A DNA stretch of 18,203 nt, taken from NCBI GenBank assembly GCA_027593235.1, contig JAQCIU010000049.1, positions 1 through 18,203 of the forward strand. The letters run 5' to 3'. Below the pieces are notes generated by a model. The model worked only from the letters and a program-made list of their open reading frames with translations. It was not told the DNA's origin and searched no databases. Both the position numbers and the translations under genes were made by a program. The DNA comes from Chloroflexota bacterium. GTDB taxonomy: Bacteria > Chloroflexota > Dehalococcoidia > UBA2979. The stretch's first letter is position 1. The number at the start of each line of letters is the position of its first letter. Positions 1-18,203 of this stretch are shown piece after piece.

Positions 1-2
1 CC

Positions 3-587
3 AGCGCGATTCTACCGCCCAACAGTCCCCCCGACGATCCCCGCCAGCCCTTTTTCAGCACCCTGCTAGGGCTTGAGCGCATCTCGTCTCTTGAGATCAG
101 CTTTTTCCCTCCAAAAGTCGCTGTGGGCAGAAACGGCGACCCAACGGCGAGCCCGACGAGGATTCCCGCGAACCTCGAACTGACCGACATCCAAGTGGTC
201 GAAGACAACGCCACCGGCCGCCTGATCATGAAGGTCCGAAATACCGGGGAGGAGTTGGCACTCGTCACGGATGTCGAGATCTCCATCGAGGAGATCACCG
301 GAGCGACCCTGAGCGGTGAGGTCCTTATTTCCCGTCGCTATGACGTCGAGTTTCCATACGCTGCTGACAGTTTCCCCAGAGTGATCCCAGTCGATGTCTC
401 GCAAGTCGTCGCCCCGGTCGGGGCTGACTCGTTTGACTCATTCGAGTTGACCGTCGTGGTCGAAGAGGGCGCACCAAACGGGTTCCGCGACTACACGTTC
501 CGAGCTCGGATTCTCTACAACAAAGATCTGGCGACGCCTTGGTCCGATCCAACGTCGGTCCGAATCTTCACCAGCGAGCGTCCATGA
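3..587 (+). CDS. Hypothetical protein, probably 5'-truncated by the window; C-terminal beta-rich (Ig-like?) region
   Basis: The frame of track ORF 123..587 has no stop back to position 3 (SAILPPNSPPDDPRQPFF...), so the GTG at 123 may be internal. Alternating hydrophobic beta-strand pattern and a 'KVRNTG' turn motif. Visibly more AT-rich than the downstream genes. Confidence 0.6.
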   Translation, partial: SAILPPNSPPDDPRQPFFSTLLGLERISSLEISFFPPKVAVGRNGDPTASPTRIPANLELTDIQVVEDNATGRLIMKVRNTGEELALVTDVEISIEEITGATLSGEVLISRRYDVEFPYAADSFPRVIPVDVSQVVAPVGADSFDSFELTVVVEEGAPNGFRDYTFRARILYNKDLATPWSDPTSVRIFTSERP

Positions 588-625
588 AGCCGCAGGAATC
601 GGAACTGATCATCCGTGCATACGAA

Positions 626-655
626 TTGACGAGGCACCCCCGAGATCGCTAAAGT
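626..655 (+). promoter_or_regulatory. Sigma70-type promoter TTGACG-N18-TAAAGT
   Basis: -35 TTGACG at 626-631, -10 TAAAGT at 650-655; predicts a TSS near 662, just ahead of the SD at 664-677. Confidence 0.7.
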
Positions 656-681
656 GGATCTCAAGAAAGGGGGTGATGCGA

Positions 682-753
682 ATGGCTCATGCTAATAGTC
701 TTCGTTTGAACATGGAGGGTCGGAGCGTCTCAACGGAGGTTGTCTCCACCTAA
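682..753 (+). CDS. 23-aa micro-ORF MAHANSLRLNMEGRSVSTEVVST
   Basis: ATG 682, TAA 751-753, preceded by AGAAAGGGGGTGAT (664-677) at normal SD spacing. Too short for the ORF track. Confidence 0.5.
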   Translation: MAHANSLRLNMEGRSVSTEVVST

Positions 754-784
754 AAGACCCCCTGTTCATAACGGGGACTCTTAC

Positions 785-821
785 GGGCCCGTTCGGCGAA
801 TGCCGACGGGCCCTTTTCTTT
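785..821 (+). terminator. Rho-independent terminator
   Basis: GGGCCCG-T-TCGGC-gaat-GCCGA-CGGGCCC (12-bp stem, one bulge) followed by TTTTCTTT at 814-821. Confidence 0.85.
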
Positions 822-884
822 GCCCGCCCCCTGCCCGGCAGGGGATAGGCTGCGTCGAACGCGCGTCACCTTCGAGGCCTCCCG

Positions 885-1676
885 ATGCCCTTCGACCTCG
901 CCCGCTACCACGCCCGCCTCGCCAGCTCCGCGGTCGGTCGCCGCGTCGAATACCGTGAACAGACCGGCTCGACGATGGACGACGCGCGCGCACTCCGCGA
1001 CGCCGAGCCGACCCTCGCACCGGGCGCCGCCTGCATCGCCGGTGAGCAAACCAGCGGACGAGGGCGCCTCGGTCGCCCCTGGGTCTCCGCGCCCGGCATC
1101 GGCCTCTACGTCACCTACTACCTGCGCCCGCGCGTCACCCCCAACGCCCCGCTGATCTCGCTCGCCGCCGCACTCGCCGTCGCCGAGGCGACCGAGGCCG
1201 TGAGCGACGTTCGCCCCGTCTTCAAGTGGCCGAACGACGTGCTCCACGACGGTCGCAAGCTCTGCGGCATCCTCGCCGAATCGCGCACCGCCGGCGACGC
1301 GCTCGACGTCTTCCTCGGCATCGGCATCAACGTCCGCCCGAACCCGAATCACCCGCCCGAGGTGGCCGCGATCGCCACCAGCCTCGAATCGATCGCCGGC
1401 GTCGCTCCCGCCGTCGAGGACCTCGCAGCCGCCCTCGCGAACGCCCTCGAGCGCCACGTCGCCGCCGTCGACCAGGATCCGGCGGCGGTCGTCGCCGCCT
1501 GGCGCGCGAACCTCGGCACCCTCGGCCAGCCCGTCACCGTCTCGACCGCCGCCGGCGAACTGCAGGGCGAGGCGATCGACGTCGGTCCCCGCGGCGAGCT
1601 GATCGTCATCACGGCGGACGGCGCACGCCACGAAATCTCCGCCGGCGACGTCGTCACCCGCACCCGCGTCGGCTAG
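885..1676 (+). CDS. birA: Biotin--[acetyl-CoA-carboxylase] ligase, monofunctional (no N-terminal HTH)
   Basis: Motifs GSTMD, EQTSGRGRLGRPW, KWPNDV, RKLCGILAE, GIGINV and C-terminal 'SAGDV'; 263 aa, too short for a DNA-binding domain. Confidence 0.95.
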   Translation: MPFDLARYHARLASSAVGRRVEYREQTGSTMDDARALRDAEPTLAPGAACIAGEQTSGRGRLGRPWVSAPGIGLYVTYYLRPRVTPNAPLISLAAALAVAEATEAVSDVRPVFKWPNDVLHDGRKLCGILAESRTAGDALDVFLGIGINVRPNPNHPPEVAAIATSLESIAGVAPAVEDLAAALANALERHVAAVDQDPAAVVAAWRANLGTLGQPVTVSTAAGELQGEAIDVGPRGELIVITADGARHEISAGDVVTRTRVG

Positions 1677-1687
1677 TCGAACGGGCC

Positions 1688-1733
1688 GTCCCCGCGCCCG
1701 CCCGAGGCCTCGGGCGGTGCGCCGCGTAGGGAC
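1688..1733. repeat. GC-rich inverted repeat with a perfect 20-bp palindrome core
   Basis: CCGCCCGAGG|CCTCGGGCGG at 1698-1717, extended by GCGC (1694-1697)/GCGC (1719-1722) and GTCCC (1688-1692)/GGGAC (1729-1733). No U-tract. Confidence 0.7.
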
Positions 1734-1740
1734 ATCGCGA

Positions 1741-1770
1741 TTGACGCTGCGCGGCTGGCCTGCCTAGGCT
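1741..1770 (+). promoter_or_regulatory. his operon promoter TTGACG-N18-TAGGCT
   Basis: -35 at 1741-1746, -10 at 1765-1770; the expected TSS coincides with the ATG at 1778. Confidence 0.7.
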
Positions 1771-1777
1771 CGACTCA

Positions 1778-1864
1778 ATGGACGATCGAACCGCCCGCAC
1801 GACTCACGCGCATCGACATGCACATCTGCATGCCTTGCCGTCGCGCGCGCGAACGTCCCGCTAG
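1778..1864 (+). CDS. hisL: Histidine attenuator leader peptide, 28 aa (MDDRTARTTHAHRHAHLHALPSRARTSR), probably leaderless
   Basis: Five His codons at alternate positions (1805-1831) directly upstream of his genes; ATG 7 nt after the -10 box with no SD; TAG at 1862-1864. Confidence 0.8.
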   Translation: MDDRTARTTHAHRHAHLHALPSRARTSR

Positions 1865-1929
1865 CTCACCGCTCTCGGAACGCCTCGAACTCCGCCGCGA
1901 CGGCCCAGGCCATCGCGGCGTTTCTGTGT
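1837..1929 (+). terminator. Attenuator: conditional terminator (1893-1929) and antiterminator (1837-1845 with 1896-1904)
   Basis: Terminator CGCCGCGA-c-GGC-ccag-GCC-a-TCGCGGCG then TTTCTGTGT. GCCGTCGCG (1837-1845) is the exact complement of CGCGACGGC (1896-1904) in the terminator 5' arm. Confidence 0.78.
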
Positions 1930-1989
1930 CCCCCGGACGCGCCGCGACTACCGCACACCACCGCAGAGGGGCGCTCAACCGAGGCTTGC

Positions 1990-3042
1990 ATGACAATCGC
2001 ACAGACCCCAGCCCGCGCGGACGCCGACGCGTCCGCAAACACGCTCGATGACGGAGGTACCCCGGTGGCCGATTCCTGGCGCAGCAATGGCATGCGCGAG
2101 CTCGATCCCGAGGCGATGCGTCGCTTCCGCCGCGTCGAACGTGAGTTTCTGTCGATCACCGGGGAGCGTGGCTTCGAGGAGATCCGCACCCCCACGATCG
2201 AGCCCCTCCACCTCTACACCACCGCCGGCGCCCTCTCGCCGGAGCTGCTCGACCGCGCCTACTCCTTCCTCGACTGGGACGGCTGGAGCGGCGAGCGCGT
2301 CGTGCTGCGTCCCGACGCCACCGTGCCCGCCGCCCGCTGGTTCGCCGGCAGTGGCCGCTCCGAGGCCCGCGTCAGCTACGTGGAGCCCGTTTACCGCTTC
2401 GAGCCCGGCGACGCCGACCGCGAACTCTGGCAGTGCGGCGTCGAACTCTTCGGCCCAACCGCCGCCGAAGGAGATCCGGAACTGCTCCGCGTCGCCCTCG
2501 ATCTGCTGGAAGCGCTCGGCCTCGAGGATCGCCGTGTCGATCTCGCCCACGCCGGCCTGATCCGTGCCGTCCTCGCCGCCGCCGGCCTCGATCCCACCGC
2601 CCAGATCGCCGCCTACGACCGCATGCTCGAGGGCGATGCATCGCTCATCGAGGAGCTGAGCGCCGCCCGTCCTGAGGGCGCTGGTGCCCTCCGACTGCTC
2701 GCCGATGTCGACGGCGACAGCGTCGGCTACGTCGCCAACCTGCGCACTGCGATGCTCCCCGTCGTCCCCGCCGCCGCGCAGCCGCTCGCCGAACTGGAGG
2801 GCGCCGCGCGCGCCCTCGATGCTCTCGGCGCCAGCTACCGCATCGTCCCCGGCACCGCCTCCAGCTTCGAGTACTACAGCGGCCTCACCTTCCGCATCAC
2901 CGCCGGCGGCGTGAGCTGCATCAGCGGCGGCCGCTACGACGGCCTGACCGCCTCGGTCGGCGGCAGCGCCGTCCCCGCCTCCGGCTTCGCCGCCTCGCTG
3001 TCGAGGTTGGCCACCCTCGTCGCCAACGGCGGCGCCGCATGA
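1990..3042 (+). CDS. hisZ: ATP phosphoribosyltransferase regulatory subunit
   Basis: HisRS-like core (GMRE, EIRTPTIE, LRPDAT, YRFE...ELWQCGVELFG, EYYSGLTF, GGRYDGL, GFA) ending without an anticodon-binding domain; ATGA overlap with hisG. Start could lie slightly downstream. Confidence 0.9.
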   Translation: MTIAQTPARADADASANTLDDGGTPVADSWRSNGMRELDPEAMRRFRRVEREFLSITGERGFEEIRTPTIEPLHLYTTAGALSPELLDRAYSFLDWDGWSGERVVLRPDATVPAARWFAGSGRSEARVSYVEPVYRFEPGDADRELWQCGVELFGPTAAEGDPELLRVALDLLEALGLEDRRVDLAHAGLIRAVLAAAGLDPTAQIAAYDRMLEGDASLIEELSAARPEGAGALRLLADVDGDSVGYVANLRTAMLPVVPAAAQPLAELEGAARALDALGASYRIVPGTASSFEYYSGLTFRITAGGVSCISGGRYDGLTASVGGSAVPASGFAASLSRLATLVANGGAA

Positions 3043-4469
3043 CCGCGACAACCGACGCCACCGCACAGCCGATCCGGGTCGCCCTCCCCCGCGGTGAACT
3101 CCGTTCCCCGCTCGCCGCGCAGCTCGCCGCCATCGACTTCGTCGCAGAGGGCTACGGCGAGGGCTCGCGCTCCTACCGCTTCGAGGTGAACGATCGTCCC
3201 GGCATCCAGGTCCGCGTCTTCTCCGACGAGGACATCCCGATCCAGGTCGCCCTCGGCAACTACGATCTCGCGGTCTGCAGCCGCGCCTGGGTCGACGAGC
3301 TGCTCGTCCGCTACCGCCACGACTCGATCGTCCCGCTGCGCGCCATCGATCTGCCGAGCGAGCCATTGGTCATTGGCGGCGCCGCTGGATCGAGCCTCGA
3401 GGCGATGGCCGCCGCCAGCCCCGTGCGCGTCGCCACCGAGTACCCGAACCTCGCGCAGCACGTGCTCACCCGGCTCCGCATCCCCAACGTGCAGCTCTTC
3501 GAGGTCTGGGCGCAGGCCCAGGCCTGGCCCCCCGACGACGCCGAACTCGCGATCGGCCTCGCCAGCGATCTGGCGAAAGACAACCTCGTCGCCCTCGGTG
3601 AGGCCCACCGCGGCGGCGTCTGGCTGATCGCCAACCGCGAAGCGCTCTCGCAGCGCAACCTCGAAGCTGCGCTCGCGCCGCTGATGCGCCTCCCGCTCGG
3701 CGATGCCGGCTCCGGCGTCGCCTCGCCCAGCCCGCTCCGCCTCGAGGGCGCCCCCACCCCCGCCGCGCGCCCCGCGCGCGACACCTTCCGCATCGCCGTC
3801 CCCGACGGCCACGCGCAGAAGGGCACCGTCCAGGCGCTCGCCGAGGCTGGTATCGCCTTCGACGGCTACACCGAGGATCGCGCCGACCGTTGGCCCCGCT
3901 CCTCGATTCCCGGCGTCGAGGTCAAGATGATGCGACCCCAGGACATGCCGCGCGCCGTCGCCCTCGGCGGCTTCGACATGGCGATGACCGGCCAGGACTG
4001 GCTCGGCGTCTTTGAATCGCTGTTCCCGGCCGCCCCGGTGACCGAACTCTGCGACCTCGGCCGCTCCAACTACCGTCTCGGCGCCGTGGTCTCCGAGGAT
4101 CTCCCGGTCGAAACGATGGCCGAAGCCGTCGCCTACTGGCGTCGCGACGATCCCGCTCGCACCATCCGCCTCGCCTCGGAGTACGCGTCGCTCGCGGACC
4201 AGTACGCGCGCGACCAGCACCTCGGCCGCTACCGCGTCATCCCGCTCTCCGGCGCCTCTGAGGGCTTCGTCCCCGAAGATGCCGAGATCCTGATCGAGGG
4301 CACCGAGACCGGCACGACCTTGAAGGCAAACCGCCTGCGTATGATTGATGTGATCATGGAGTCGACCAACTGCGCGATCGGTCACACCACGCGCCCACCC
4401 GGTCGGCGTGGCGAGCTGCGCGACGAGTTCGTCCAGCGTCTCAGTGACGCGAACAGTCGCGCGGGTTAG
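3039..4469 (+). CDS. hisG: ATP phosphoribosyltransferase catalytic subunit with two tandem short-form HisG units
   Basis: Unit 1: IRVALPRG, EDIPIQVALGNYDLAV, RVATEYPNLA. Unit 2: FRIAVPDG, RPQDMPRAVALGGFDMAMTGQDW, RLASEYASLA, GASEG, ETGTTLKANRL. No C-terminal regulatory domain. Confidence 0.9.
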   Translation: MTATTDATAQPIRVALPRGELRSPLAAQLAAIDFVAEGYGEGSRSYRFEVNDRPGIQVRVFSDEDIPIQVALGNYDLAVCSRAWVDELLVRYRHDSIVPLRAIDLPSEPLVIGGAAGSSLEAMAAASPVRVATEYPNLAQHVLTRLRIPNVQLFEVWAQAQAWPPDDAELAIGLASDLAKDNLVALGEAHRGGVWLIANREALSQRNLEAALAPLMRLPLGDAGSGVASPSPLRLEGAPTPAARPARDTFRIAVPDGHAQKGTVQALAEAGIAFDGYTEDRADRWPRSSIPGVEVKMMRPQDMPRAVALGGFDMAMTGQDWLGVFESLFPAAPVTELCDLGRSNYRLGAVVSEDLPVETMAEAVAYWRRDDPARTIRLASEYASLADQYARDQHLGRYRVIPLSGASEGFVPEDAEILIEGTETGTTLKANRLRMIDVIMESTNCAIGHTTRPPGRRGELRDEFVQRLSDANSRAG

Positions 4470-4481
4470 GGCTCTGCAGGG

Positions 4482-5231
4482 ATGCCGTCGCTCGGTTCCC
4501 ACATGGTGCGCGCTCGGCTCATCGCCGCTGCGCTCGACCTCGAGGAGATCGACGCCGATCGCGGCGCGTTCATCCTCGGCTCCACCGCGCCCGATATCCG
4601 GGTCGTCTCGCGCGGCAATCGCGCCGATACCCACTTCTTCGACCTCGATGACCTCTCGAAGCAGGACTCCGTCGAGCGCATGTTCCTGGCGCACCCGCAC
4701 TTCCGCACGCCCGCCGGCCTCGACGTGGCGACGACCGCCTTCATCGCCGGCTACATCACCCACCTGGTACTCGACGAAGCCTGGATCGAGGAGATCTACC
4801 GGCCGTCGTTCGGCATCTACTCCGACATCGACGCCGATCCGCGCAGCAACGTCCTCGATCGCGTGCTCCAGTACGAACTCGATCGGCGCGACCGCATCGA
4901 CGATCAGTGCCGCCACGATCTGCAGGGGGCGCTCGCCGCGACCGCCCCGCCTCGCGGTATCCCGTTCATCACCGACGACCACCTCGACGAGTGGTTCACC
5001 GTCGTGAGCGACGTCGCCCAGCAGGAACCCGACTACTCGCGCTTCCGCCGCATGATGTCGCGCCACCTCGCCGGCGCCGGCTTCTCCGAAGACGCCATCG
5101 AGGAGTGCTGTAGCGATCCGGAGCTGATCGTCGGCGAAGCAATCGGCGTGGTCTCCCCCGAGCGCATCGAGCGCTTCTGGGAACACGCCGCGGATCTCAT
5201 GCACGACCGGGTCACGCGGTATCTGCGGTGA
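4482..5231 (+). CDS. Zinc-dependent phospholipase C-family (Zn_dep_PLPC-like) protein, function unknown
   Basis: N-terminal MPxxxxH, LGSTAPD, THFF and GYITHLVLDEAW motifs; no signal peptide; GTGA overlap with hisD. Confidence 0.75.
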   Translation: MPSLGSHMVRARLIAAALDLEEIDADRGAFILGSTAPDIRVVSRGNRADTHFFDLDDLSKQDSVERMFLAHPHFRTPAGLDVATTAFIAGYITHLVLDEAWIEEIYRPSFGIYSDIDADPRSNVLDRVLQYELDRRDRIDDQCRHDLQGALAATAPPRGIPFITDDHLDEWFTVVSDVAQQEPDYSRFRRMMSRHLAGAGFSEDAIEECCSDPELIVGEAIGVVSPERIERFWEHAADLMHDRVTRYLR

Positions 5232-6586
5232 CCAGCACCACGGCAAGGACCACCATGCCCTCATTCACCATCGTCGAGGGCGCCGATGCCGCGCGAGCAG
5301 GCGTCCTTCGGCGTGCCCCAATCGGCGACACCGAACTCTCCGAGGCCGTCCGCGCCGGCATCGCTGATCTCTGGGGCGAGCCGCTCAGCGCCGCCGCCCA
5401 CGTCGCGCGCATCCTCGAGGCCGTCGCCACCGAGGGCGATGCCGCGGTCGCTCGCCTCTCCCGGCGCTTCGACGGCTCCGCCTACGATCGCATTGAGGTA
5501 TCACCGGATGAGATCGCCGAGGCCTTTGGCCTCGTCCCCCAGGAGCAGATCGACGCCATCGAGTTCGCCGCGAACCGTGTCCGCCACTACCACCGCGAGC
5601 AGCTTCTTCACGCCCCGCAGAGCTTCAACGCCCGCGGCGCCGGGATGCTCGTGCGCCCGCTGCAGCGTGTCGGCATCTACATGACCGGCTCCGATGCCGC
5701 GTTGCCGTCCTCGGTGCTCCACACCGCGATCCCCGGCGTCGTCGCTGGCGTCGACGAGGTGATCGGCGTTACCGCCGCGCAGGCGGATGGCACCGTCAAC
5801 CCGCTCAAGCTCGTCGCCGCTCGCTTCGCCGGCATCCACCGCATCTTCCGTGCCTCGGGTGCGCAGGCGATCGCCGCGCTCGCCTTCGGCACGGAGACCA
5901 TCCCCCGCGTCGACAAGATCTACGGACCCGGCAACATCTTCGTCACGCTCGCGAAGCAGCAGCTCTTCGGCCGCGTCGGCATCGACGCCATCTACGGCCC
6001 GACCGAGACGCTGGTCATCGCCGACGAATCCGCCAGCATCGACCTCGTCGCGGCGGATCTGCTCGCGCAGGCCGAGCACGATCGCATGGCCACCCCCGTG
6101 CTGATCACCACCAGCCGCGCCGTCGCAGAGGCGACGGCAGTGGAGATCGAGGCCCAGCTCGCAACCCTCGAGCGTGGCGAAATCGCCCGCGCCGCCGTTG
6201 AGCGCGGCGGCGCCGTCGTCGCCGCCGATCTCGAGGAAGCCGTCACCCTCGCGAACGAGTTCGCGCCGGAACACCTCTGCCTGCTCGTCGCCGATCCGGC
6301 CGCGCTGGTCCCGCGCATCCGCAACGCTGGCGGCATCTTCCTCGGCGAGTCATCACCCGAGGTGCTCGGCGACTACACCGCCGGACCCAGCCACGTCATG
6401 CCCACCGGCGGCTCGGCGCGCTTCGCCTCGCCGCTCTCTGTCCTCGACTTCCTCAAGATCACCTCGATCGTCAGCTTCGACGAACACGAGTTGGACCGTC
6501 AGGGCCCGTACGCCGCCACGCTCGCACGCGCCGAGGGCCTCACCGGCCACGCCCGCAGCATCGAACGCCGAATCGAGGGACGCTAA
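5228..6586 (+). CDS. hisD: Histidinol dehydrogenase
   Basis: GAQAIAALAFGTE, GPGNIFVTLAK, GPTE, DLLAQAEHD, APEHL, GDYTAGPSHVMPT. Alternative start ATG 5255 with AAGGA upstream. Confidence 0.96.
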   Translation: MTSTTARTTMPSFTIVEGADAARAGVLRRAPIGDTELSEAVRAGIADLWGEPLSAAAHVARILEAVATEGDAAVARLSRRFDGSAYDRIEVSPDEIAEAFGLVPQEQIDAIEFAANRVRHYHREQLLHAPQSFNARGAGMLVRPLQRVGIYMTGSDAALPSSVLHTAIPGVVAGVDEVIGVTAAQADGTVNPLKLVAARFAGIHRIFRASGAQAIAALAFGTETIPRVDKIYGPGNIFVTLAKQQLFGRVGIDAIYGPTETLVIADESASIDLVAADLLAQAEHDRMATPVLITTSRAVAEATAVEIEAQLATLERGEIARAAVERGGAVVAADLEEAVTLANEFAPEHLCLLVADPAALVPRIRNAGGIFLGESSPEVLGDYTAGPSHVMPTGGSARFASPLSVLDFLKITSIVSFDEHELDRQGPYAATLARAEGLTGHARSIERRIEGR

Positions 6587-7692
6587 TGGCCCGCTTCGAC
6601 CCCATCGCCTCGTTGCGGCCGCACATCCGCAACCTGCCACCCTACGAGGCCCTCGAAGACCTCGAGGAACTCGCGGCCGAGTACGGCTTCGATCCGGCCG
6701 ACGTCCTCAAGCTGGACGGCAACGAGAACCCGTTCGGTCCCTCGCCGAAGGCGCTCGCCGCGTTGCAGACCAACTACGGCGCCGATCGCTACGCCGATGC
6801 CGCCCAGTTCCGGCTCCGCTCCGCGCTCTCCAGCTACGTCGGCGTGCCGCCTGAGAACATCGTCGCCGGCGCCGGCTCGGACGAGTTGATCGATCTGATC
6901 TTCCGCCTCTGGGTTCAGGAGGGCGACACCGTCGTCACCTCCGGCCCCACCTTCGGCATGTACGCCTTCGACTCTGGCCTCAACGGCTCCACCCTTGTCG
7001 ATGTGCCCCGCAACGCCGACTGGGCCGTCGATCCCACCGCGCTGATCGGCGCGGCCCTCGAGGCCAAAGCCGTCTTCCTCGCCTCGCCGAACAACCCCAC
7101 CGGCAACCTCCTGCAGCCCGATCTGCTGGACGCGCTCCTCGAGACCGGCGCACTCGTCGTCCTCGACGAGGCCTACATCGAGTTCGCCGGCGTCGAGTCC
7201 GCCGCCGTCCGCTCGATCACGAACCCCGCCCTGCTCGTGCTCCGCACCTTCAGCAAGTGGGGCGGCATCGCCGGCATGCGTGTCGGCTACGCCACCGGCA
7301 CCGCCGAGGCCATCGACGTGATGCTCCGCGCCAAGCAGCCCTACAACATCTCCGCCGCCAGCCAGGCCGCCGCGCTCGCCACCCTCGAGGACGTCCCGAT
7401 CCTCGACGAGCGCGCGCGCATCCTCGTCGCCCAGCGCGATCGCCTCGCCGACGCGATGCGCCAGGCGGAGTGGCTCGAGCCCTTCCCCTCCGACACCAAC
7501 TTCCTGCTCGTCCGCGTCCACGACGGCCGCAGCGGGCGCGAGGTCTCCGAGGCCCTGCGCCGCCACGGCATCTTCGTCCGCACCTACGGCACGCCTCGCC
7601 TCGCGGACTGCTTCCGCATCTCCATGGGCACGCCGGAACAGACCGACCGCATCATCGCGGCGATCAGCGAAATGGGAGCCACCAGTGCGTGA
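6586..7692 (+). CDS. hisC: Histidinol-phosphate aminotransferase
   Basis: KLDGNENP, GSDELI, SPNNPTG, DEAYIEF, LRTFSK (PLP lysine), GMRVGY; TAATG overlap with hisD. Confidence 0.96.
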   Translation: MARFDPIASLRPHIRNLPPYEALEDLEELAAEYGFDPADVLKLDGNENPFGPSPKALAALQTNYGADRYADAAQFRLRSALSSYVGVPPENIVAGAGSDELIDLIFRLWVQEGDTVVTSGPTFGMYAFDSGLNGSTLVDVPRNADWAVDPTALIGAALEAKAVFLASPNNPTGNLLQPDLLDALLETGALVVLDEAYIEFAGVESAAVRSITNPALLVLRTFSKWGGIAGMRVGYATGTAEAIDVMLRAKQPYNISAASQAAALATLEDVPILDERARILVAQRDRLADAMRQAEWLEPFPSDTNFLLVRVHDGRSGREVSEALRRHGIFVRTYGTPRLADCFRISMGTPEQTDRIIAAISEMGATSA

Positions 7693-8296
7693 AGGATCCT
7701 CGAACCGCCGCGCCACCATCGATCGCGAGACCGCGGAGACCTCCATCCACGTCACCCTGAACGTGGACGGCGTCGGCCGCGCCCGCATCTCCACCGGCAT
7801 CGGCTTCTTCGATCACATGCTCGACGCCTTCGCCCGCCACGGCCGTTTCGACCTCACCGTCGAAACGAACGGGGACCTCCAGGTCGACGCGCACCACACC
7901 ATGGAAGACACCGCGCTCGCCGTCGGCCAGGCATTCGATCAGGCGCTTCAGAGCCGTGCCGGCATCGTCCGCATGGGCGACGCGCTCGTCCCGCTCGATG
8001 AGGCGCTCGTTCAGGCGATCGTCGATATCTCCGGCCGCCCCTACGCTGCCACCAGCTTCGACTTCGTCGGCGAACGCATCGGCGACGCGCCCACGGAAAT
8101 GGTGCCGCACGTCCTCTCCTCGTTCGCCACCGGCGCGCGTCTCACGCTCCACGTCCGCCAGCTCGCCGGCGCCAACGATCACCACATCGCCGAGGCCGCG
8201 ATGAAGGCGCTCGGCCGCGCCCTCGACGCCGCCACCCGCATCGATGGCCGCATCGTCGGGGAAGTCCCCTCGACGAAAGGCACGCTCACGACCTAG
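7685..8296 (+). CDS. hisB: Imidazoleglycerol-phosphate dehydratase (monofunctional)
   Basis: TGIGFFDHML, DAHHTMED, PLDEAL, NDHHIAEA, PSTKG; GGGAG SD at 7674-7678. Confidence 0.96.
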   Translation: MREGSSNRRATIDRETAETSIHVTLNVDGVGRARISTGIGFFDHMLDAFARHGRFDLTVETNGDLQVDAHHTMEDTALAVGQAFDQALQSRAGIVRMGDALVPLDEALVQAIVDISGRPYAATSFDFVGERIGDAPTEMVPHVLSSFATGARLTLHVRQLAGANDHHIAEAAMKALGRALDAATRIDGRIVGEVPSTKGTLTT

Positions 8297-8316
8297 CGCC
8301 CTCCGAGGAGGATCGC

Positions 8317-8955
8317 ATGCGCCTGCTCCTGACCGGCTTCGAACCGTTCGGCGGTGAGACCGTGAACCCATCGGGTGAAGTCGTGCGCGAGCTCGCCGCC
8401 GATCCACCGCCCGGCATCGAGCTGACGACGATCGTCATCCCGGTCCGTTTCCGCGCCGTCGCCGACGCGATCCTGCCCGCCCTCGCCAGCGACGCCCACG
8501 ACGTCTGGCTCGGCCTCGGCGAGGCCGGCAAGCGCTCCGAACTCTCCGTCGAGCGCGTCGGCATCAACGTCTTCGTCGATGCCGCGCTCCCCGTCTCGAA
8601 GCGCCGTGAGCGGCCAATCCGCGAGGCGGGGCCGGACGCCTACTTCGCGCGCCTCCCGCTCCAGCCGCTCGCCGCGATCATGCGCGAGGCGGGCGCCCCC
8701 TCCGTCGTCTCGAACACCGCCGGCACCTACTGCTGCAACGAGTCGCTCTACACCGTCCAGGACTACCTCGCGACCACTGCCCGCGACATCCCCAGCGGCT
8801 TCATCCACCTCCCCTACCTGCCGTCGCAGGTCGCGAACAAACCCGCCGGCACGCCCTCGATGGCGCTCGAAACCCAGCTCCGCGGCATCCGCGCCGCGAT
8901 CGAGCTGCTCCGCGCCCAACTCGCCACCACCACCCCCGCGCTGGCCAACGCATGA
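8317..8955 (+). CDS. pcp: Pyroglutamyl-peptidase I (peptidase C15)
   Basis: LLTGFEPFGGETVNPS; catalytic Glu (VERVGIN), Cys (AGTYCCN) and His (GFIHLP); SD GAGGAGG upstream. Confidence 0.93.
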   Translation: MRLLLTGFEPFGGETVNPSGEVVRELAADPPPGIELTTIVIPVRFRAVADAILPALASDAHDVWLGLGEAGKRSELSVERVGINVFVDAALPVSKRRERPIREAGPDAYFARLPLQPLAAIMREAGAPSVVSNTAGTYCCNESLYTVQDYLATTARDIPSGFIHLPYLPSQVANKPAGTPSMALETQLRGIRAAIELLRAQLATTTPALANA

Positions 8956-9770
8956 CCGAGGCCAACGACACCGCCTCCCTCCTCCGCTTCGCCCTCGATC
9001 TCGCCGACGAGGCCGACCAGATCTCCATGCGCTACTACCGAGGTGAACTCGGCACGGAACAGAAAGCGGACGGCTCGCTCGTCACCAAGGCAGACAAAGC
9101 AGTCGAAGCACACCTCCGCACCCGCATCACCGAGACCTATCCCGACCACGACATCCTCGGCGAGGAACAGGGCTTCACCCCCGGCGCCACCGCCGCCGCA
9201 GGCACCAGCACCGCCCGCTGGATCCTCGATCCGATCGACGGCACCCACGGCTTCGCCCGCGACCTCCCGGTCTGGGCGACCCTAATCGCCCTCGAACGCG
9301 ACGGCACCATCGAGGTCGGCGTCGCCTCCGCGCCCGCGCTCGGCACGCGCTGGTGGGCAGCACGCGACCTCGGCGCCTATCGCGGCGACCTCCACGCGCG
9401 CGGACGGGCAGGGGAGCGCATCGCCGTATCGGACATAACGACCATCGAGGAGGCCCATCTTCTCTACGGCTCCTACGGCCTCACCCTCGACGCCTGGCCG
9501 GGCGCCGACGCCCTCCTCCGCCGCGGCTGGCGCACCCGTGGCCTCGGCGACTTCTGGGCGCACTGCCTCGTCGCCGAAGGCTCCGCGGAGCTGATGCTCG
9601 AGGCGATCTGTTCGCCGTGGGACATGGCCGCCCTGATCGTCATCGTCGAGGAAGCCGGCGGCCGCATGACCGACCTCGCGGGCAACGCCGCCTTCGACGC
9701 CGGGCAATCCATCACCTCGAACGGCCACCTGCACGACGCGGTGCTCGCCGCGCTGCAGGAGTCTCGCTAG
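8952..9770 (+). CDS. hisN: Inositol monophosphatase-family histidinol-phosphate phosphatase
   Basis: VTKAD, ILGEE, WILDPIDGT, RGLGDFW, WDMAA motifs; in a his operon whose HisB has no phosphatase domain. Confidence 0.85.
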   Translation: MTEANDTASLLRFALDLADEADQISMRYYRGELGTEQKADGSLVTKADKAVEAHLRTRITETYPDHDILGEEQGFTPGATAAAGTSTARWILDPIDGTHGFARDLPVWATLIALERDGTIEVGVASAPALGTRWWAARDLGAYRGDLHARGRAGERIAVSDITTIEEAHLLYGSYGLTLDAWPGADALLRRGWRTRGLGDFWAHCLVAEGSAELMLEAICSPWDMAALIVIVEEAGGRMTDLAGNAAFDAGQSITSNGHLHDAVLAALQESR

Positions 9771-9796
9771 CGGCTTACAGTGCTGGCGGGGGACTG

Positions 9797-10051
9797 ATGG
9801 CCCACGTCGACGAGCAGATCACGAAGCTGGCGGCCGAGGACGGATACCGCGTCATCTCGCGGGACGAGCGCGTGGTGGTGCTGGAGCGGAAGAACTCCTG
9901 GCTCGCCGTCGCCATCACGGCAATCCTTGCCGGCGTGGGCGGCGGTGGCATGGCGATCCAGCGCTCTGACTGGGTCTACCTCGACGTTGACGAACGCGGG
10001 GAGGCGGTTGTGCAGCTATCGCCTCCACCTCGACAGGCCGAGCAGACGTAG
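9797..10051 (+). CDS. 84-aa hypothetical protein with one hydrophobic segment
   Basis: ATG 9797 after GGGGGA; MAHVDEQITKLAAEDGYRVISRDERVVVLERKNSWLAVAITAILAGVGGGGMAIQRSDWVYLDVDERGEAVVQLSPPPRQAEQT. It is the protein-like tail of track ORF 9353..10051 and fills the gap between hisN and the MFS gene. Confidence 0.7.
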   Translation: MAHVDEQITKLAAEDGYRVISRDERVVVLERKNSWLAVAITAILAGVGGGGMAIQRSDWVYLDVDERGEAVVQLSPPPRQAEQT

Positions 10052-11293
10052 CTACGTCGAGTCACGGCCAGGACGAGGCGCACGACCGGCGCGAGAGCGA
10101 ACGATCACCAGCCCGGCCACCGCGGCCGTCGCCGCCGCACAGCTGAAGATCACCGCGAGGCTCGCCGACTGAGCCACGATCGCCAGCGTCCCCCCGGCAA
10201 GGATCTCCCCGAACGACTCCATCTGCGCGAGGAACGACTGCACTGTCGCCCGCACATCGCTCGTCGCCCGCCGGTTCACCCAGATCTCGCTGACCGAGCG
10301 CGCGACCGGCCACCCCACGCCCTGCGCGAGGATCACCCCCGCCATCGCCGTCACGTCCTCGGGCGCGTGCGCAACCACGAGCAGCCCGGCCGCCCCGACC
10401 GCGCACGCGACGACGTACGTCCGCCGCGCCACCCCCGTGTCGTCGATTCGCGCCTCCACGAAACGCAGCGCCACCGCGCCCGCCGCCAGCGTGACAAGGC
10501 CCAGCGCCGTCAGCCACACGATCGGTGCCGGGTCCTGCGGCAGCCCGAGGGCGATCAGCTGCTTCGGCACCAGGAAGCTCACCTCGGAGGCCGCGTTCAC
10601 CAGTAACCACGCCGCAAAGACGGTCAGGATCTCGTGGTCGTGCCGCGCGACCCGGACCCCGCGACGAAAGATCGAGAACGACTCGCGCAGCCGGTTCCCC
10701 TTCGCCCTCGTGAAGTTGCGCTCCGGGAACACCACCGCGACAACCAGCCCAAGCACCACCGTCGCGGACCCGGCCACGACGATCGCCGCCGCCAGGCTCA
10801 CGACCCACGCCAGCGCGCCAAACGTAACCAGCCCGACCGCGCCGCCAAGCTGCGCCCAGCGCGCACGCGCGATCAGCACGCGCGAGATGCGCGCTGGCTG
10901 GTTCAGCTCGTCGGTCACCCAGGCAATGTCCGCGCCACTGGCGAACGTCCACCCCAGCCCCCACAGCACCTGCGTCAGCAGGATCAGCGGGAACGCCGTG
11001 ACGAACCCGGTCATCGCCATCCCCGCGCCCATCACCAGTTGCGCGATCACCAGCGACCACTTGCGGCTGATCGTGTCCGCCATCACCCCGGTCGGCACCT
11101 CGGCGACCACGGTCGTCAGCGCAAGCACCGCCCCGTAGACCAGTAACTGCGCCGCCGACAGCTCCGCCTCGACCACGAGGTACAGGCTCGTCACCAACCA
11201 CCAGCCGCGATGGAAGACGGCGTGAATCGACGACCACCAGATGAAGGTGCGCGCGACGTCGCGAGGCGATCCGGGAGATGGGTGTGAGGTCAC
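10052..11293 (-). CDS. Major facilitator superfamily transporter
   Basis: About 12 hydrophobic segments in 413 aa; motif A-like EVPTGVMADTISRK; GWTFASGAD; RATVQS. Confidence 0.9.
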   Translation of the reverse strand: MTSHPSPGSPRDVARTFIWWSSIHAVFHRGWWLVTSLYLVVEAELSAAQLLVYGAVLALTTVVAEVPTGVMADTISRKWSLVIAQLVMGAGMAMTGFVTAFPLILLTQVLWGLGWTFASGADIAWVTDELNQPARISRVLIARARWAQLGGAVGLVTFGALAWVVSLAAAIVVAGSATVVLGLVVAVVFPERNFTRAKGNRLRESFSIFRRGVRVARHDHEILTVFAAWLLVNAASEVSFLVPKQLIALGLPQDPAPIVWLTALGLVTLAAGAVALRFVEARIDDTGVARRTYVVACAVGAAGLLVVAHAPEDVTAMAGVILAQGVGWPVARSVSEIWVNRRATSDVRATVQSFLAQMESFGEILAGGTLAIVAQSASLAVIFSCAAATAAVAGLVIVRSRAGRAPRPGRDST

Positions 11294-11384
11294 GGCGAAC
11301 AGCTCTCAGCGTTCGGGCACGGCGCCTGTTGCGGTCGTGGAGCTGGGATCGCCGGCTAAGCCGGCTGCGAGTGTAGCCGTCGGG

Positions 11385-11657
11385 TCAATCGCCGGCGGCT
11401 ACCGCAACCTCCGCGAGGTCGAAGCGGAAGTCCTCGATCACCTGGTTCGCCAGCAGTTGCCGGCACATCTCCGTGATCGACGCCTCCGCGGACTCGGCGC
11501 TCGGCGCCTCCAGCGTGACCTCGATCCGCTTGCCCACCCGTACCCGCTGCGCCCCCGCGAACCCGAGGTTCTTCAACCCATCGAGGACCGCCAACCCCTG
11601 CGGGTCGTTCACCAGCGGCTTCAGCATCACTTCGATCTCGGCGAGGTAGCTGGCCAT
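11385..11657 (-). CDS. purS: Phosphoribosylformylglycinamidine synthase subunit PurS
   Basis: LKPLVNDPQG, VRVGKRIE, MCRQLLANQVIEDF; SD AAGGA. Confidence 0.95.
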   Translation of the reverse strand: MASYLAEIEVMLKPLVNDPQGLAVLDGLKNLGFAGAQRVRVGKRIEVTLEAPSAESAEASITEMCRQLLANQVIEDFRFDLAEVAVAAGD

Positions 11658-11710
11658 CGGTTGTCCTTCTCGTCGGTCTCAATCGAGACCCGTTGTTCCA
11701 GTCGGGGGCG

Positions 11711-12619
11711 CTAGCCCGGCAGTTCGCTCCCGGTGATCAGGCGGTACGCCTCCAGGTAGCGCGCGCTCGTCGCCTCAACCACCTCGTCCGGCAGCACCGG
11801 GCCCGGCGCCGTCTTGCCCCAGTCGAGACCTTCGAGGTAGTCGCGCAACGGCTGCTTGTCGAAGGACGGCTGGTCCGCGCCTGGCAGGTACTTCGACGAC
11901 GGCCAGAACCGCGAGGAGTCGGGGGTCATCACCTCGTCGATCAGCGTCACTTCACCGTTCAGCATCCCGAACTCGAACTTCGTGTCGGCGACCAGGATCC
12001 CCCGCTGTGCCGCGTGATGCGAGCCGTACCGATAGAGCGCCAGCGCGCGCAGCCGCACCGCGTTCGCCACCTCGACGCCCAGCACCGCCTCGGCCTCCTC
12101 GAACGTCATCGGCGCATCGTGGTCGGGTGGCTCCGCCTTCGTCGAGGGTGTGAAGATCGGCTCCATCAGTTGGCTGCACTTCAGCAACCCCTTCGGCAGC
12201 GTGATCCCGCAGATCGATCCGCTTCGTTGGTACTCCGCCCAACCAGACCCCGCGACATAACCGCGCACCACCGCTTCGACCTTCAGCACCTCGGCGCGGC
12301 GCATCACCATCGAGCGCCCGTAGTACTCCGCCGGGCAGTCCACCCCCAGCTCCGAGGCGTTCGAGGCATCGAGGACCGCGATGAAGGCGTTGGGCACGAC
12401 CTCGGTGGTGCGCTGGAACCAGAACTCCGAGAGGCGGGTCAGTACCTCGCCCTTCCTCGGGATGCCGTTCGGCAGCACCACGTCGAACGCCGAGACGCGG
12501 TCGGTGGCGACGAGAAGCAACCGGTCGTCGCCCAGTGCGTAGAGGTCGCGCACCTTGGCGCGGTGCAGCAGCTCGAGGTCGAGCGACGTCTCCATCATCA
12601 CTGGCGTGGCGACAGTCAT
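11711..12619 (-). CDS. purC: SAICAR synthetase
   Basis: KVRDLY, DRVSAFD, FTPSTKA, DTKFEFG, DEVMTPDSSRFW, FDKQ. Confidence 0.96.
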   Translation of the reverse strand: MTVATPVMMETSLDLELLHRAKVRDLYALGDDRLLLVATDRVSAFDVVLPNGIPRKGEVLTRLSEFWFQRTTEVVPNAFIAVLDASNASELGVDCPAEYYGRSMVMRRAEVLKVEAVVRGYVAGSGWAEYQRSGSICGITLPKGLLKCSQLMEPIFTPSTKAEPPDHDAPMTFEEAEAVLGVEVANAVRLRALALYRYGSHHAAQRGILVADTKFEFGMLNGEVTLIDEVMTPDSSRFWPSSKYLPGADQPSFDKQPLRDYLEGLDWGKTAPGPVLPDEVVEATSARYLEAYRLITGSELPG

Positions 12620-13938
12620 GCGTTCACTCCACTGGCGGCGGCGCCGAGGCCGAGTCGATCGAACGAGTCGTCGACGTGAGCCAGATACGCCTCGATGTTG
12701 AACAGGGCGTCGAAGTCGGCCGGCGAGAGTCTCGAGGTCACCTCGGCGTCCGCCTCGAGCAGCTCGCGGTAGGGGAGGTCGTCGTGCCAGGCGCGCATCG
12801 CGTGCCCCTGCACGATCTTGTACGCCGCCTCGCGGGTCATGCCCGCCGCCAGCAGCGCGTTCAGCACCTTCGCCGAGAAGATGAGGCCGCGCGTCATGTC
12901 GAGGTTCTGGCGCATCCGCTCGGGGTACACCACCAACCCGCGCATCACCCCGGTCAAGATCTTCAGGCTGTAGGCCAGCAGGCCGGTCGAGTCGGGGAAC
13001 GCGATCCGCTCTGCGCCCGAGTGCGAGATGTCGCGCTCGTGCCAGAGCGGCACGTTTTCAAGGCCGACCGTCGCGTAGCCGCGCAGCGTGCGCGCGAGAC
13101 CGCAGACCCGCTCGCACAACTCCGGGTTCCGCTTGTGCGGCATCGAGGACGATCCGGTCTGCGCGCCCTCGGTGAACGGCTCCTCCGCCTCGCGGATCTC
13201 CGTGCGCTGGAGCGCGCGGATCTCGGTCGCGAACTTTTCGAGCGAAGCGCCGACACCGGCGAGCACCGAGAGATAGAACGCGTGTCGGTCCCGCTGAATG
13301 ATCTGCGTCGTGATCGGCGCGACCGCGAGGCCCAGCCGGTTGCAGGCGTTCGCCTCGACCGACGGCGGCACCGAGGCGTGCGTGCCGACCGGACCGGACA
13401 TCTGGCCGACGGCGACCTGCTCGCGCGCCAGCGCGAGGCGCTCCTCGTGGCGGCGCAGCTCATCGACCCAGACGGCGAGCTTGAGGCCGAAGGTGGTCGG
13501 CTCGGCGTGAACGCCGTGGGTACGGCCGATGCAGATGGTGCGACGGTGCTCGACCGCCCGCTTCGCGATGACGGCTTTCAGCTCCCCGACCTGGGCGGTC
13601 AGGAAGTCCAGCGCGTCCACGAGCTGCAGGCAGGTCGCGGTGTCCCAGACGTCGTTGCTGGTGAGGCCGTAGTGCACCCAGCGCGACTCGTCGCCCAGCG
13701 AATCGGCGACTGATCGCAGGAACGCCGTCACGTCGTGGTGCGTCTCCTCGATGTAGCGCATCACGTCCGGCACGTGCACCCGCGCCTTCGAGGTGATCGC
13801 CGCCACGTCCGCGGCCGGGATCACACCCTCGTCGCCCCACGCCTCCACGACCGCCAGTTCGACCTTCAGCCAGGTCTGGAACTTGTGCTCGTCGGACCAG
13901 ATCGCCGTCAGCTCCGGAACGCTGTAACGGTCAATCAT
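12616..13938 (-). CDS. purB: Adenylosuccinate lyase
   Basis: MIDRY start, HHDVTAF, HYGLTS, GRTHGVHAEPTTFG, SSSMPHKRNP, HERDISHS. Confidence 0.97.
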   Translation of the reverse strand: MIDRYSVPELTAIWSDEHKFQTWLKVELAVVEAWGDEGVIPAADVAAITSKARVHVPDVMRYIEETHHDVTAFLRSVADSLGDESRWVHYGLTSNDVWDTATCLQLVDALDFLTAQVGELKAVIAKRAVEHRRTICIGRTHGVHAEPTTFGLKLAVWVDELRRHEERLALAREQVAVGQMSGPVGTHASVPPSVEANACNRLGLAVAPITTQIIQRDRHAFYLSVLAGVGASLEKFATEIRALQRTEIREAEEPFTEGAQTGSSSMPHKRNPELCERVCGLARTLRGYATVGLENVPLWHERDISHSGAERIAFPDSTGLLAYSLKILTGVMRGLVVYPERMRQNLDMTRGLIFSAKVLNALLAAGMTREAAYKIVQGHAMRAWHDDLPYRELLEADAEVTSRLSPADFDALFNIEAYLAHVDDSFDRLGLGAAASGVNA

Positions 13939-14269
13939 TCGCGAACTCCTCGCGTACCGGCGAGAACACCTCGATCAGCGTCGCCGCATCCACGGCGCGC
14001 ACGTAGTGCGGCATCCCACCCGGGATCAGATAAGACGCACCCGGTCCCAGCATCCAGTTCTCGTCGCCGATCTCAAGCTGAATCTCACCGTCGGCGACGG
14101 TACCCGCCTGCTCGTGCGGATGCGTGTGCCCCGGAACCTCGGCGCCCGGACTGAGCGTGATCTGAACCAGCGTCACGTGATCGCCGGAGACCAGCGTTCG
14201 CCGGACCACCCCCGGAAACATCTCGATCGGTTTCGTCTCGCTGTATTCGCGTGTTCGGGGGTCGGCCAT
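13931..14269 (-). CDS. Cupin domain protein (Cupin_2-like, metal-binding)
   Basis: HTHPHEQ and IPGGMPH cupin motifs, C-terminal EVFSPVRE; SD AAGGAG; 8-bp overlap with purB. Confidence 0.9.
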   Translation of the reverse strand: MADPRTREYSETKPIEMFPGVVRRTLVSGDHVTLVQITLSPGAEVPGHTHPHEQAGTVADGEIQLEIGDENWMLGPGASYLIPGGMPHYVRAVDAATLIEVFSPVREEFAND

Positions 14270-14357
14270 GGGGAGGCTCCTTCGAGCTAGCCGGCGTGTC
14301 GGTTCGTCGTTCGGTCAGTTGCAGCGCGGTTGTTCGTCTCGTTGCTCATCGGCCAGC

Positions 14358-15644: not shown

Positions 15645-15662
15645 CGCCCTACCCCCACTCGC

Positions 15663-17339: not shown

Positions 17340-17370
17340 GGATTCCAGGGGAGTGGACCGCTAAGAAAGC

Positions 17371-17399
17371 AGCCTATCCAGCCGCTATAGTCCGGTCAA
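17371..17399 (-). promoter_or_regulatory. guaA-pur operon promoter TTGACC-N17-TAGGCT
   Basis: Minus strand: -35 is the complement of GGTCAA (17394-17399), -10 is the complement of AGCCTA (17371-17376); same -10 hexamer as the his promoter. Confidence 0.7.
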
Positions 17400-17448
17400 C
17401 GAACACCGTCCGCCCCGCCTCCCGACCCCACCCGCCGAGGAGCGACCG

Positions 17449-18141: not shown

Positions 18142-18203
18142 GTGACTGGTGTCAATCGAGGGCGGGCACCCTCTCGCCGCGGGGTAACCGGCGGTCCGAG
18201 CCG

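Follow-up and report, generated by a model that had tools for sequence, protein, structure and literature searches.

Several described systems resemble, in part, the element reported here, a micro-open reading frame (micro-ORF) wrapped in a long bulged hairpin, which lies upstream of birA near the start of an 18,203-nt stretch of DNA from a Chloroflexota bacterium of the class Dehalococcoidia (GenBank assembly GCA_027593235.1, contig JAQCIU010000049.1, positions 1 to 18,203 of the forward strand; hereafter the window, in which all coordinates are given). Leader attenuators of the trp and his type, including rnTrpL/peTrpL of Sinorhizobium, combine a promoter-proximal short ORF with a terminator and downstream biosynthetic genes and keep the frame without conserving the peptide, and the excerpts of the rnTrpL/peTrpL reports used here describe an attenuator transcript that can live on its own (PMC7298713, PMC7968998). 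Excerpts of the other cited reports add the following: on Bacillus subtilis hbs mRNA, which also has a strong SD near its 5' end, RNase J1 is stopped by the 30S subunit or initiating ribosome bound there, and long-range 5'/3' pairing modulates decay (PMC5737220); the cry3A STAB-SD, a strong Shine-Dalgarno (SD) sequence near the 5' end and complementary to the 16S rRNA 3' end, also blocks RNase J1 (PMC4113751); a translation-activating stem-loop set a short distance downstream of the fepA start acts on initiation (as cited in PMC11979758); type I toxin mRNAs are compact RNAs with a small ORF that stay translationally inert until the structure is opened (PMC11228461); and extended pairing of the SD with the anti-SD (aSD) defines the start in Staphylococcus aureus, where the rare-codon short leader rbfL acts via ribosome pausing (PMC13009471).

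Compared with these systems, the element has the ORF, terminator and birA layout of the leader-attenuator class but lacks two of its defining properties, that is, runs of regulatory codons and antiterminator complementarity. It also occurs in stand-alone copies and, unlike in the trp and his attenuators, the body of the ORF is itself one arm of the main hairpin, with the stop codon inside. Similar to hbs and STAB-SD, the element carries a 14-nt SD at its predicted 5' end, shows 5'-3' pairing in many lineages and occurs in a genome that encodes RNase J (a likeness read from sequence); however, the two stabilisers guard a long protein-coding message, whereas the element is a peptide-indifferent micro-ORF ending at a terminator, and STAB-SD has no start codon. 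As with the fepA stem-loop, the base of the element's hairpin stands at a conserved distance past the start codon (median +16), which is a likeness of position; the fepA stem-loop is small, local and part of a normal gene, while the hairpin described here extends over all that remains of the ORF and over the post-stop segment. Unlike type I toxins, the element encodes a hydrophilic, non-conserved peptide and occupies a single-copy, syntenic locus. Extended SD-aSD pairing and a short ORF with rare codons are shared with the S. aureus helices and rbfL, but rbfL is described in that excerpt as occluding the next gene's ribosome-binding site, whereas the next gene lies here beyond a terminator and the ORF is hairpin-wrapped. 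We favor, tentatively and at slightly less than an even chance, the reading that the element is an autonomous, ribosome-gated micro-ORF RNA, that is, a conserved single-copy gene of Chloroflexota in which the act of translating, and not the peptide, is under selection.

The hairpin and its conservation

The initial annotation of this DNA had proposed that the micro-ORF is locked in a long bulged hairpin which starts about where the leading edge of an initiating ribosome would sit and ends beside the terminator. This observation is confirmed, well beyond chance. The hairpin consists of the following parts.

697-779, plus strand: long bulged hairpin (RNAfold, arm duplex tests, co-evolution, geometry)
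697-721, plus strand: 5' arm of the hairpin, composed of AGTCTTCGTT (697-706), TGAACA (707-712), t (713), GG (714-715), a (716) and GGGTC (717-721)
756-779, plus strand: 3' arm of the hairpin, composed of GACCC (756-760), CC (761-762), TGTTCA (763-768), t (769) and AACGGGGACT (770-779)
722-747, plus strand: inner part of the hairpin, a GGAG/CTCC helix with the apical pairs C729-G738, U730-A737 and C731-G736 and the loop 732-735

The minimum free energy (MFE) structure obtained with RNAfold for 693-783 has exactly the 23 pairs that had been proposed between 697-721 and 756-779 (10 + 6 + 2 + 5), with the two G:U pairs (U701.G775 and U702.G774) and the three single-nucleotide bulges also in place, and none of 200 dinucleotide-preserving shuffles was as stable (-36.3 kcal/mol versus -23.9 +/- 3.2 kcal/mol, z -3.93). 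The minus strand of the same region folds more weakly (-32.4 kcal/mol, z -3.37, 1/200 shuffles), which is what one would predict for an RNA read from the plus strand in which the G.U pairs matter. Further inside, the proposed pairing of GGAG (722-725) with CTCC (744-747) is part of the MFE structure. Two finer details of the proposal held only in part: TAA (693-695) and TTA (781-783), thought to extend the stem, are complementary but lie outside the MFE structure, and the CAAC/GTTG pairing within 731-742 is available in the sequence, but the fold and the relatives favor another apical hairpin, of the form (G)CAUCUC-loop4-GAGGUG(C). The geometry was as described. With the A of the AUG at 682, the first paired base (697) is at +16, and the 66 unique sequences of the element compared in this study agree with such a start at the ribosome's leading edge, the base of the hairpin having a median position of +16 and falling between +10 and +19 in 47/66 of them. 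At the other end, the last paired base (779) is 5 nt before the terminator stem, and the corresponding distance is 0-7 nt in 65/66 sequences.

When 25 sequences were aligned plainly with MAFFT and given to RNAalifold, the long hairpin was missed, and a local pairing between half of the SD and GUCACC was returned instead. Since the variable middle of that alignment is not structurally aligned, the arms were tested by duplex energy against shuffled and non-cognate arms. The ORF from codon 4 onward paired with the stop-to-terminator segment better than at least 95% of 200 dinucleotide shuffles in 48/66 sequences (mean z -2.85), with -33.2 kcal/mol in the window versus -13.8 kcal/mol in shuffles; the terminator finder sometimes took in flanking bases, which shortened the post-stop segment in some of these tests. 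When the arms were swapped among 26 representatives, one for each subgroup, genus or family, the cognate 3' arm ranked first of 26 in 17 representatives and among the top three in 25/26. Within the window's own group (nine sequences), 82.9% of cells were paired compared to 42-54% with slid partners, and five double-sided pair changes were found versus 2.0 +/- 1.0 in shuffles (4/500 shuffles reached five). Examples of compensatory changes include CGTT/AACG to CGTC/GACG, TGAACA/TGTTCA to TGGACA/TGTCCA and, in the inner helix, CGGAG/CTCC to CCGAG/CTCGG (locus L071). By the shuffle, slide and cognate-arm tests alike, the arms co-evolve across lineages. The apical CAUCUC-loop-GAGGUG hairpin was paired in 91.5% of cells over the 66 sequences versus 42-68% when slid. 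Based on the shuffle, cognate-arm and position results, the hairpin noted in the window is the core of the family and keeps its placement with respect to start codon and terminator.

The micro-ORF, its peptide and its SD-type motifs

The hairpin has to be considered together with the frame that it encloses and with the motifs on both sides of this frame.

682-753, plus strand: micro-ORF, 23 codons (MAHANSLRLNMEGRSVSTEVVST) and TAA
664-677, plus strand: extended SD, AGAAAGGGGGTGAT, with a GGGGG core at 669-673, complementary to the 16S 3' tail
735-739, plus strand: internal SD-like GGAGG, 8 nt ahead of the last sense codon (748-750)
758-762, plus strand: C-run (CCCCC) just past the stop codon, in the window part of the 3' arm of the hairpin (partition-function and duplex tests)

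From aligned start to aligned stop, the frame is open in all 66 sequences, with 18-24 codons. Start codons (31 ATG, 31 GTG, 4 TTG) and stop codons (34 TAA, 27 TAG, 5 TGA) vary, and the length of the ORF differs between groups by whole codons; a frame kept through whole-codon length steps is the pattern that selection on translation produces. The initial annotation had read the layout as a ribosome trap that allows initiation but opposes elongation. This does not agree with a frame that stays open in 66/66 sequences while its start and stop codons switch, a pattern which implies that selection acts on ribosomes that reach the stop codon.

The peptide behaves differently. Within-group substitutions at codon positions 1, 2 and 3 number 22, 29 and 19, that is, without a third-position excess, and the residue is altered in 39/51 variable codons, only 12/51 being purely synonymous. 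Close relatives have either E or G at the first position of a recurrent E-V pair (GAG/GGG), an alternation also seen in the true SD from one genus to another, and in two loci (L242 and L244) the GAGG motif stands in a different codon phase. Early codons of the window's ORF (CAT, AAT, AGT, CTT, CGT and TTG) are seldom used in a set of 11 window genes, where AGT accounts for 2.3% of the codons for Ser, AAT for 2.5% of those for Asn and CAT for 5% of those for His, and the tandem AGT codons are retained despite genomes of 68% G+C. Searches of six peptides against Pfam and NCBIfam returned nothing at E <= 10. Residues D, S, H, R, E and G abound in the peptides, which are hydrophilic, either acidic or basic, and without a hydrophobic stretch, while their ends recur across the phylum (N-terminal D-D/S-S-H/R, C-terminal E-V-x-x-x). 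Taken together, the codon-position pattern, the GAG/GGG swap, the phase shifts, the retained AGT codons and the lack of a family match suggest that what is selected looks like the translation of the frame plus RNA-level motifs rather than the peptide. Hence, the initial annotation appears to have been right that this is a gated message and not an ordinary small gene, but ribosomes are evidently supposed to get as far as the stop codon.

Between the SD at 664-677 and the 16S 3' tail, 14 contiguous pairs are possible, including one G.U; the 3' end used, GGATCACCTCCTTTCTA, was taken from one genome of the same genus and one of the same family. Complementarity of this length occurs at only three loci in the 3.39-Mb assembly (68% G+C), and GG.GGTGATGC within the SD is invariant in 31/31 seed sequences. 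GTG 673, ATG 676 and ATG 682 share one frame (GTGATGCGAATG), the first two lying inside the 16S-pairing stretch, and the arrangement GTGATGCnnRTG is invariant across the window's family. The sole locus of the same genome with longer complementarity to the 16S tail is on another contig (C76, ~6059-6074; GGAAAGGAGGTGATTC, 16 nt) and has an ATG ~15 nt later.

A second SD-type motif stands inside the frame. The internal GRGG is missing from 2/66 sequences; in 59 of the 64 that have it, exactly 11 nt separate its end from the stop codon and thus 8 nt from the last sense codon, and in 58/64 the 5' GGRGG likewise finishes 8 nt ahead of the start codon. Because the two spacings are equal, a ribosome whose A site contains the stop codon would meet an SD as far from its P site as during initiation. 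Past the stop codon, a pyrimidine run complementary to the SD is found in most lineages of the window's family as well as in two other families (f16 and f23), and its pairing with the SD is significant by duplex tests in 33/66 sequences. Partition-function calculations on whole predicted transcripts give P >= 0.85, in most groups other than the window's, for pairing between the SD's G-run and the C-run. In the window's genus, however, the C-run (758-762) is predicted to be held by GGAGGG (714-719) in the long hairpin, leaving the SD mostly free of it, and the start codon is predicted to be unpaired (0.48-0.98 over six sequences of the genus; 0.98 in the window). That is, the window's hairpin would occupy what acts as an anti-SD elsewhere. 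The "tightly gated mRNA" of the initial annotation fits the sister lineages, in which the C-run pairs with the SD.

Candidate readings and the link to birA

The hairpin is most likely, judging from the signals around it, the structural core of a small transcription unit of ~160 nt, with birA downstream.

626-655, plus strand: promoter-like site, sigma-70-like (consensus scan), TTGACG (626-631), 18-nt spacer and TAAAGT (650-655)
662-663 (CA), plus strand: predicted transcript start, 7-8 nt past the -10 hexamer, at the onset of sequence conservation
785-821, plus strand: intrinsic terminator, stem 785-797/802-813, loop GAAT, T-tract 814-821
885-1676, plus strand: birA (Pfam; NCBIfam TIGR00121 above cut-off), a biotin-protein ligase without the N-terminal DNA-binding domain

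We infer a promoter role for the upstream site; TTGAC followed by TAnnnT is present at the equivalent place in 24/24 family loci and in distant loci too. At the predicted transcript start, alignment columns C6 and A7 are nearly invariant or invariant, and the columns upstream are variable. The terminator hairpin (-24.8 kcal/mol) has a GC-rich stem and is followed by TTTTCTTT. An equivalent hairpin was found in 66/66 sequences, with at least five T in the next 8 nt in 36/66, which is an undercount since the hairpin finder often drew the T's into the stem.

An alternative that we consider rather unlikely, yet rank second, is that the element is a cis-acting leader of birA (here of the birA-his cluster), in which a strong promoter would drive the leader and passage of the terminator, or survival of decay by means of a ribosome-bound 5' SD, would set the level of birA. 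Consistent with this alternative, birA lies downstream on the same strand in 45/51 loci, that is, in 24/25 loci of the family (the 25th ends too early), 16/19 of other Dehalococcoidia families and 5/7 of other classes, while the upstream neighbor varies between loci. In family f16, birA starts, with a GGAGG of its own, 17-19 nt past the terminator hairpin, which leaves no room for a promoter, and birA must therefore be co-transcribed there. A frame kept without its peptide is typical of leader ORFs, and stabilisers of the 5' SD kind are described in the excerpts cited above (PMC4113751, PMC5737220), with an RNase J gene present in the genome. On the other hand, complementarity to the 5' arm of the terminator, as an antiterminator would need, is not found beyond shuffles: the post-stop arm beats 95% of shuffles in 1/66 sequences (mean z +0.2) and the ORF plus arm in 3/66 (mean z +0.3). 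Regulatory codons are not enriched either, the peptides containing 0-2 His (none in the window or in group C) and no excess of any other codon linked to the downstream genes. Classical his attenuation, with neither His runs nor an antiterminator, was rejected. Further, five genomes carry an intact element that is not followed by birA, with no covariance-model match at E < 0.01 (filters off) within 1.5 kb of their birA genes elsewhere; in the two of these loci for which ORFs were listed, the next long ORF is convergent. A -10-like TAnnnT also stands between terminator and birA in many family loci. Whether the element is autonomous or a leader, some read-through into birA is likely. A link to biotin through the upstream aminotransferase was considered and rejected, this gene being a generic class-III aminotransferase below every NCBIfam cut-off, including that of bioA.

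Less probable still is a gene for a micro-protein, in which the 18-24 residue peptide would be the effector and the RNA structure would merely tune its synthesis. The conservation of frame, start and stop in 66/66 sequences, the phylum-wide recurrence of the terminal residue patterns and the high output to be expected from a very strong SD would all suit such a gene, but the substitution counts by codon position and the residue changes given above, the E/G alternation that follows the SD-like motif exactly, the codon-phase shift of GAGG, the rare AGT codons kept in a 68% G+C genome and the six peptides without a family match do not. A trans-acting RNA working through its SD and anti-SD motifs, either as a decoy that titrates 30S subunits or as a small RNA (sRNA) pairing through its C-rich and purine-rich segments, with translation merely tolerated, is decidedly improbable in our view. 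Such an RNA would account for the sRNA-like layout (a stable body flanked by a single-stranded 5' segment and a Rho-independent terminator), for the stand-alone copies, for the invariance of the 5' GG.GGTGATGC beyond the needs of an SD and for the two SD-type sites per RNA at ribosome-compatible spacings; yet no target is obvious, although no target search was made, and a pure decoy needs neither a conserved ORF length nor a conserved stop position. Finally, a type I toxin mRNA silenced by SD sequestration is hardly credible: a small ORF and, in many lineages, predicted intramolecular SD sequestration with 5'-3' pairing recall the systems in the excerpt of PMC11228461, but the peptides are hydrophilic and without a hydrophobic stretch, selection at the peptide level is not seen, the chromosomal site is single-copy and syntenic phylum-wide, and no antisense gene was noticed, although no search for one was made.

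Hence, given the element's own promoter-like site and terminator, the unlinked copies and the outcome of the attenuator tests, we rank the autonomous, ribosome-gated RNA first and the birA leader second. Several points weigh against this ranking. The phylum-wide same-strand linkage to birA argues for a cis role, which the favored reading treats as secondary, and the co-transcription required in family f16 points in the same direction. The three codons fixed past GAG GTG could reflect a conserved peptide C-terminus (E-V-x-x-x), which would produce the same spacing of the internal motif. The predicted SD/anti-SD closure, being significant in 33/66 sequences only, is not a universal part of the mechanism, and covariation in the apical hairpin was not significant among the 66 sequences (too little variation). 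The transcript ends are taken from consensus motifs, and transcription, translation, ribosome holding and any physiological output are likewise predictions from sequence. The sampled genomes, many of them incomplete metagenome assemblies, are related, and thus the counts overstate independence.

Under the autonomous RNA reading, a 30S subunit would bind the exposed 5' SD and the AUG such that its leading edge touches the base of the hairpin, and in this position it might in addition protect the 5' end against RNase J (encoded in the window's genome; TIGR00649, 570 bits versus a cut-off of 400). Elongation would then have to melt the hairpin. Once the stop codon has entered the A site, the GGAGG, released by opening of the apical hairpin, would be 8 nt from the P-site codon, the same distance as between the true SD and the start codon, such that the terminating ribosome could be held and would cover the C-run along with the 3' arm's first half. 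After release, the C-run would re-form the hairpin (in the window's genus) or pair with the SD and close the message (in most sister lineages). The transcript would end at a constitutive terminator, and birA would probably receive read-through. A more specific version, in which the element holds ribosomes at two stations (the 5' SD at the start and the internal SD at the last sense codon) and thereby reads out or buffers free ribosomes or 16S 3' tails, is quite doubtful; if true, it would represent a translational counterpart of what 6S RNA is for RNA polymerase, and birA and the genes following it would receive read-through in proportion to the state of the ribosome pool.

If the autonomous RNA reading is correct, Chloroflexota carry an unannotated, ancient RNA gene, present in at least 19/21 genera of one family, in many other Dehalococcoidia families and in other classes, which would be a target for annotation upstream of birA in hundreds of metagenome-assembled genomes. 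Such a gene would differ from textbook leaders in having its whole frame wrapped in a hairpin, an SD of the most extended kind in its genome, a second SD placed before the stop codon at a spacing like that of initiation, and no antiterminator, and it would provide a mutable model in which SD-aSD pairing at both ends of an ORF gates the message. It would also mean that a conserved open frame need not imply a conserved protein.

Distribution and surroundings of the element

BLAST searches among relatives recovered 600-840 in full from the window's genus and from two others, with short matches to the SD and ORF start further out; the loci extended from these matches share the promoter, SD, short ORF, internal GGAGGTG, post-stop C-run and terminator. 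A pattern scan over one genome per species gave 26 loci, 23 of them true copies, all titled Dehalococcoidia or Chloroflexi/Chloroflexota. An apparent restriction to one family (6/401 genomes of the class with the strict GGGGG pattern) was rejected as an artefact of the pattern, since relatives with GGAGG exist; five family genomes without a strict-pattern match have a diverged GGAGG copy directly upstream of birA.

A covariance model seeded with 31 sequences, the E-values of which are rough, found exactly one copy in 81/99 family genomes (46/48 of those of high quality; 19/21 genera); a search at the level of the order covered these 99 genomes again and yielded no further copy. It found none in g16 (0/4) and g10 (0/8), the two genera with the smallest genomes (0.7-1.9 Mb), several of them 83-92% complete, and this gap could reflect loss in streamlined genomes or divergence past the reach of the model. 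In a sample of the class, 64/151 genomes matched at E <= 0.01, and in a phylum-wide sample nine of 150 other genomes, belonging to other Chloroflexota classes, matched at E <= 1e-4. When fetched, 19/20 distant loci of the class were real and 7/7 loci of other classes had the same layout; the remaining class match (L246, E 6.7e-5) falls within a coding region and was discarded as false. Neither the window nor any of 14 related loci matched an Rfam 15 family at its gathering score, and when 540-900 was scanned permissively, all matches were at chance level (E 0.16 or worse), those to sRNAs being driven by the terminator. The element is thus absent from Rfam, and the literature searched describes neither it nor a birA leader, so we regard it as previously undescribed.

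Among the metagenome matches listed for the strong-SD pattern, 80 loci were fetched and at least eight pass the element filter, two of these eight being identical to known loci, with L092 a partial copy besides. Another 71 of the 80 are unrelated to the element but share the strong SD. Many of them (for instance L058, L070, L090, L094, L104 and L119, within the range L058-L137) head very short ORFs for hydrophobic, lysine-ended peptides on contigs of lower G+C, and look like small membrane-peptide genes with an equivalent extended SD.

The spacer between terminator and birA is itself variable. In one subgroup (L021, L031, L032, L045 and L047), TAnnnT precedes the birA ATG by 6-7 nt, such that the birA mRNA would be leaderless, and in the window TAGGCT (846-851) is 33 nt before that ATG. 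Two to four tandem terminator-like GC hairpin units precede birA in L021 (~140-330 nt past the SD) and also in L044 and L122, and a short tandem repeat, TGTCTGGGCTTCTGCTCG, follows the terminator in L203; such repeats lengthen the spacer to 200 nt, and to ~400 nt in L040. Past birA, the window continues with hisZ-like, hisG, hisD, hisC-type aminotransferase and hisB genes. The hisG ORF (3039-4469, 476 aa) matches the HisG domain only over residues 299-452, so its true start may be much later, and a 249-aa ORF between hisG and hisD (4482-5231) has a weak match to zinc-dependent phospholipase C.

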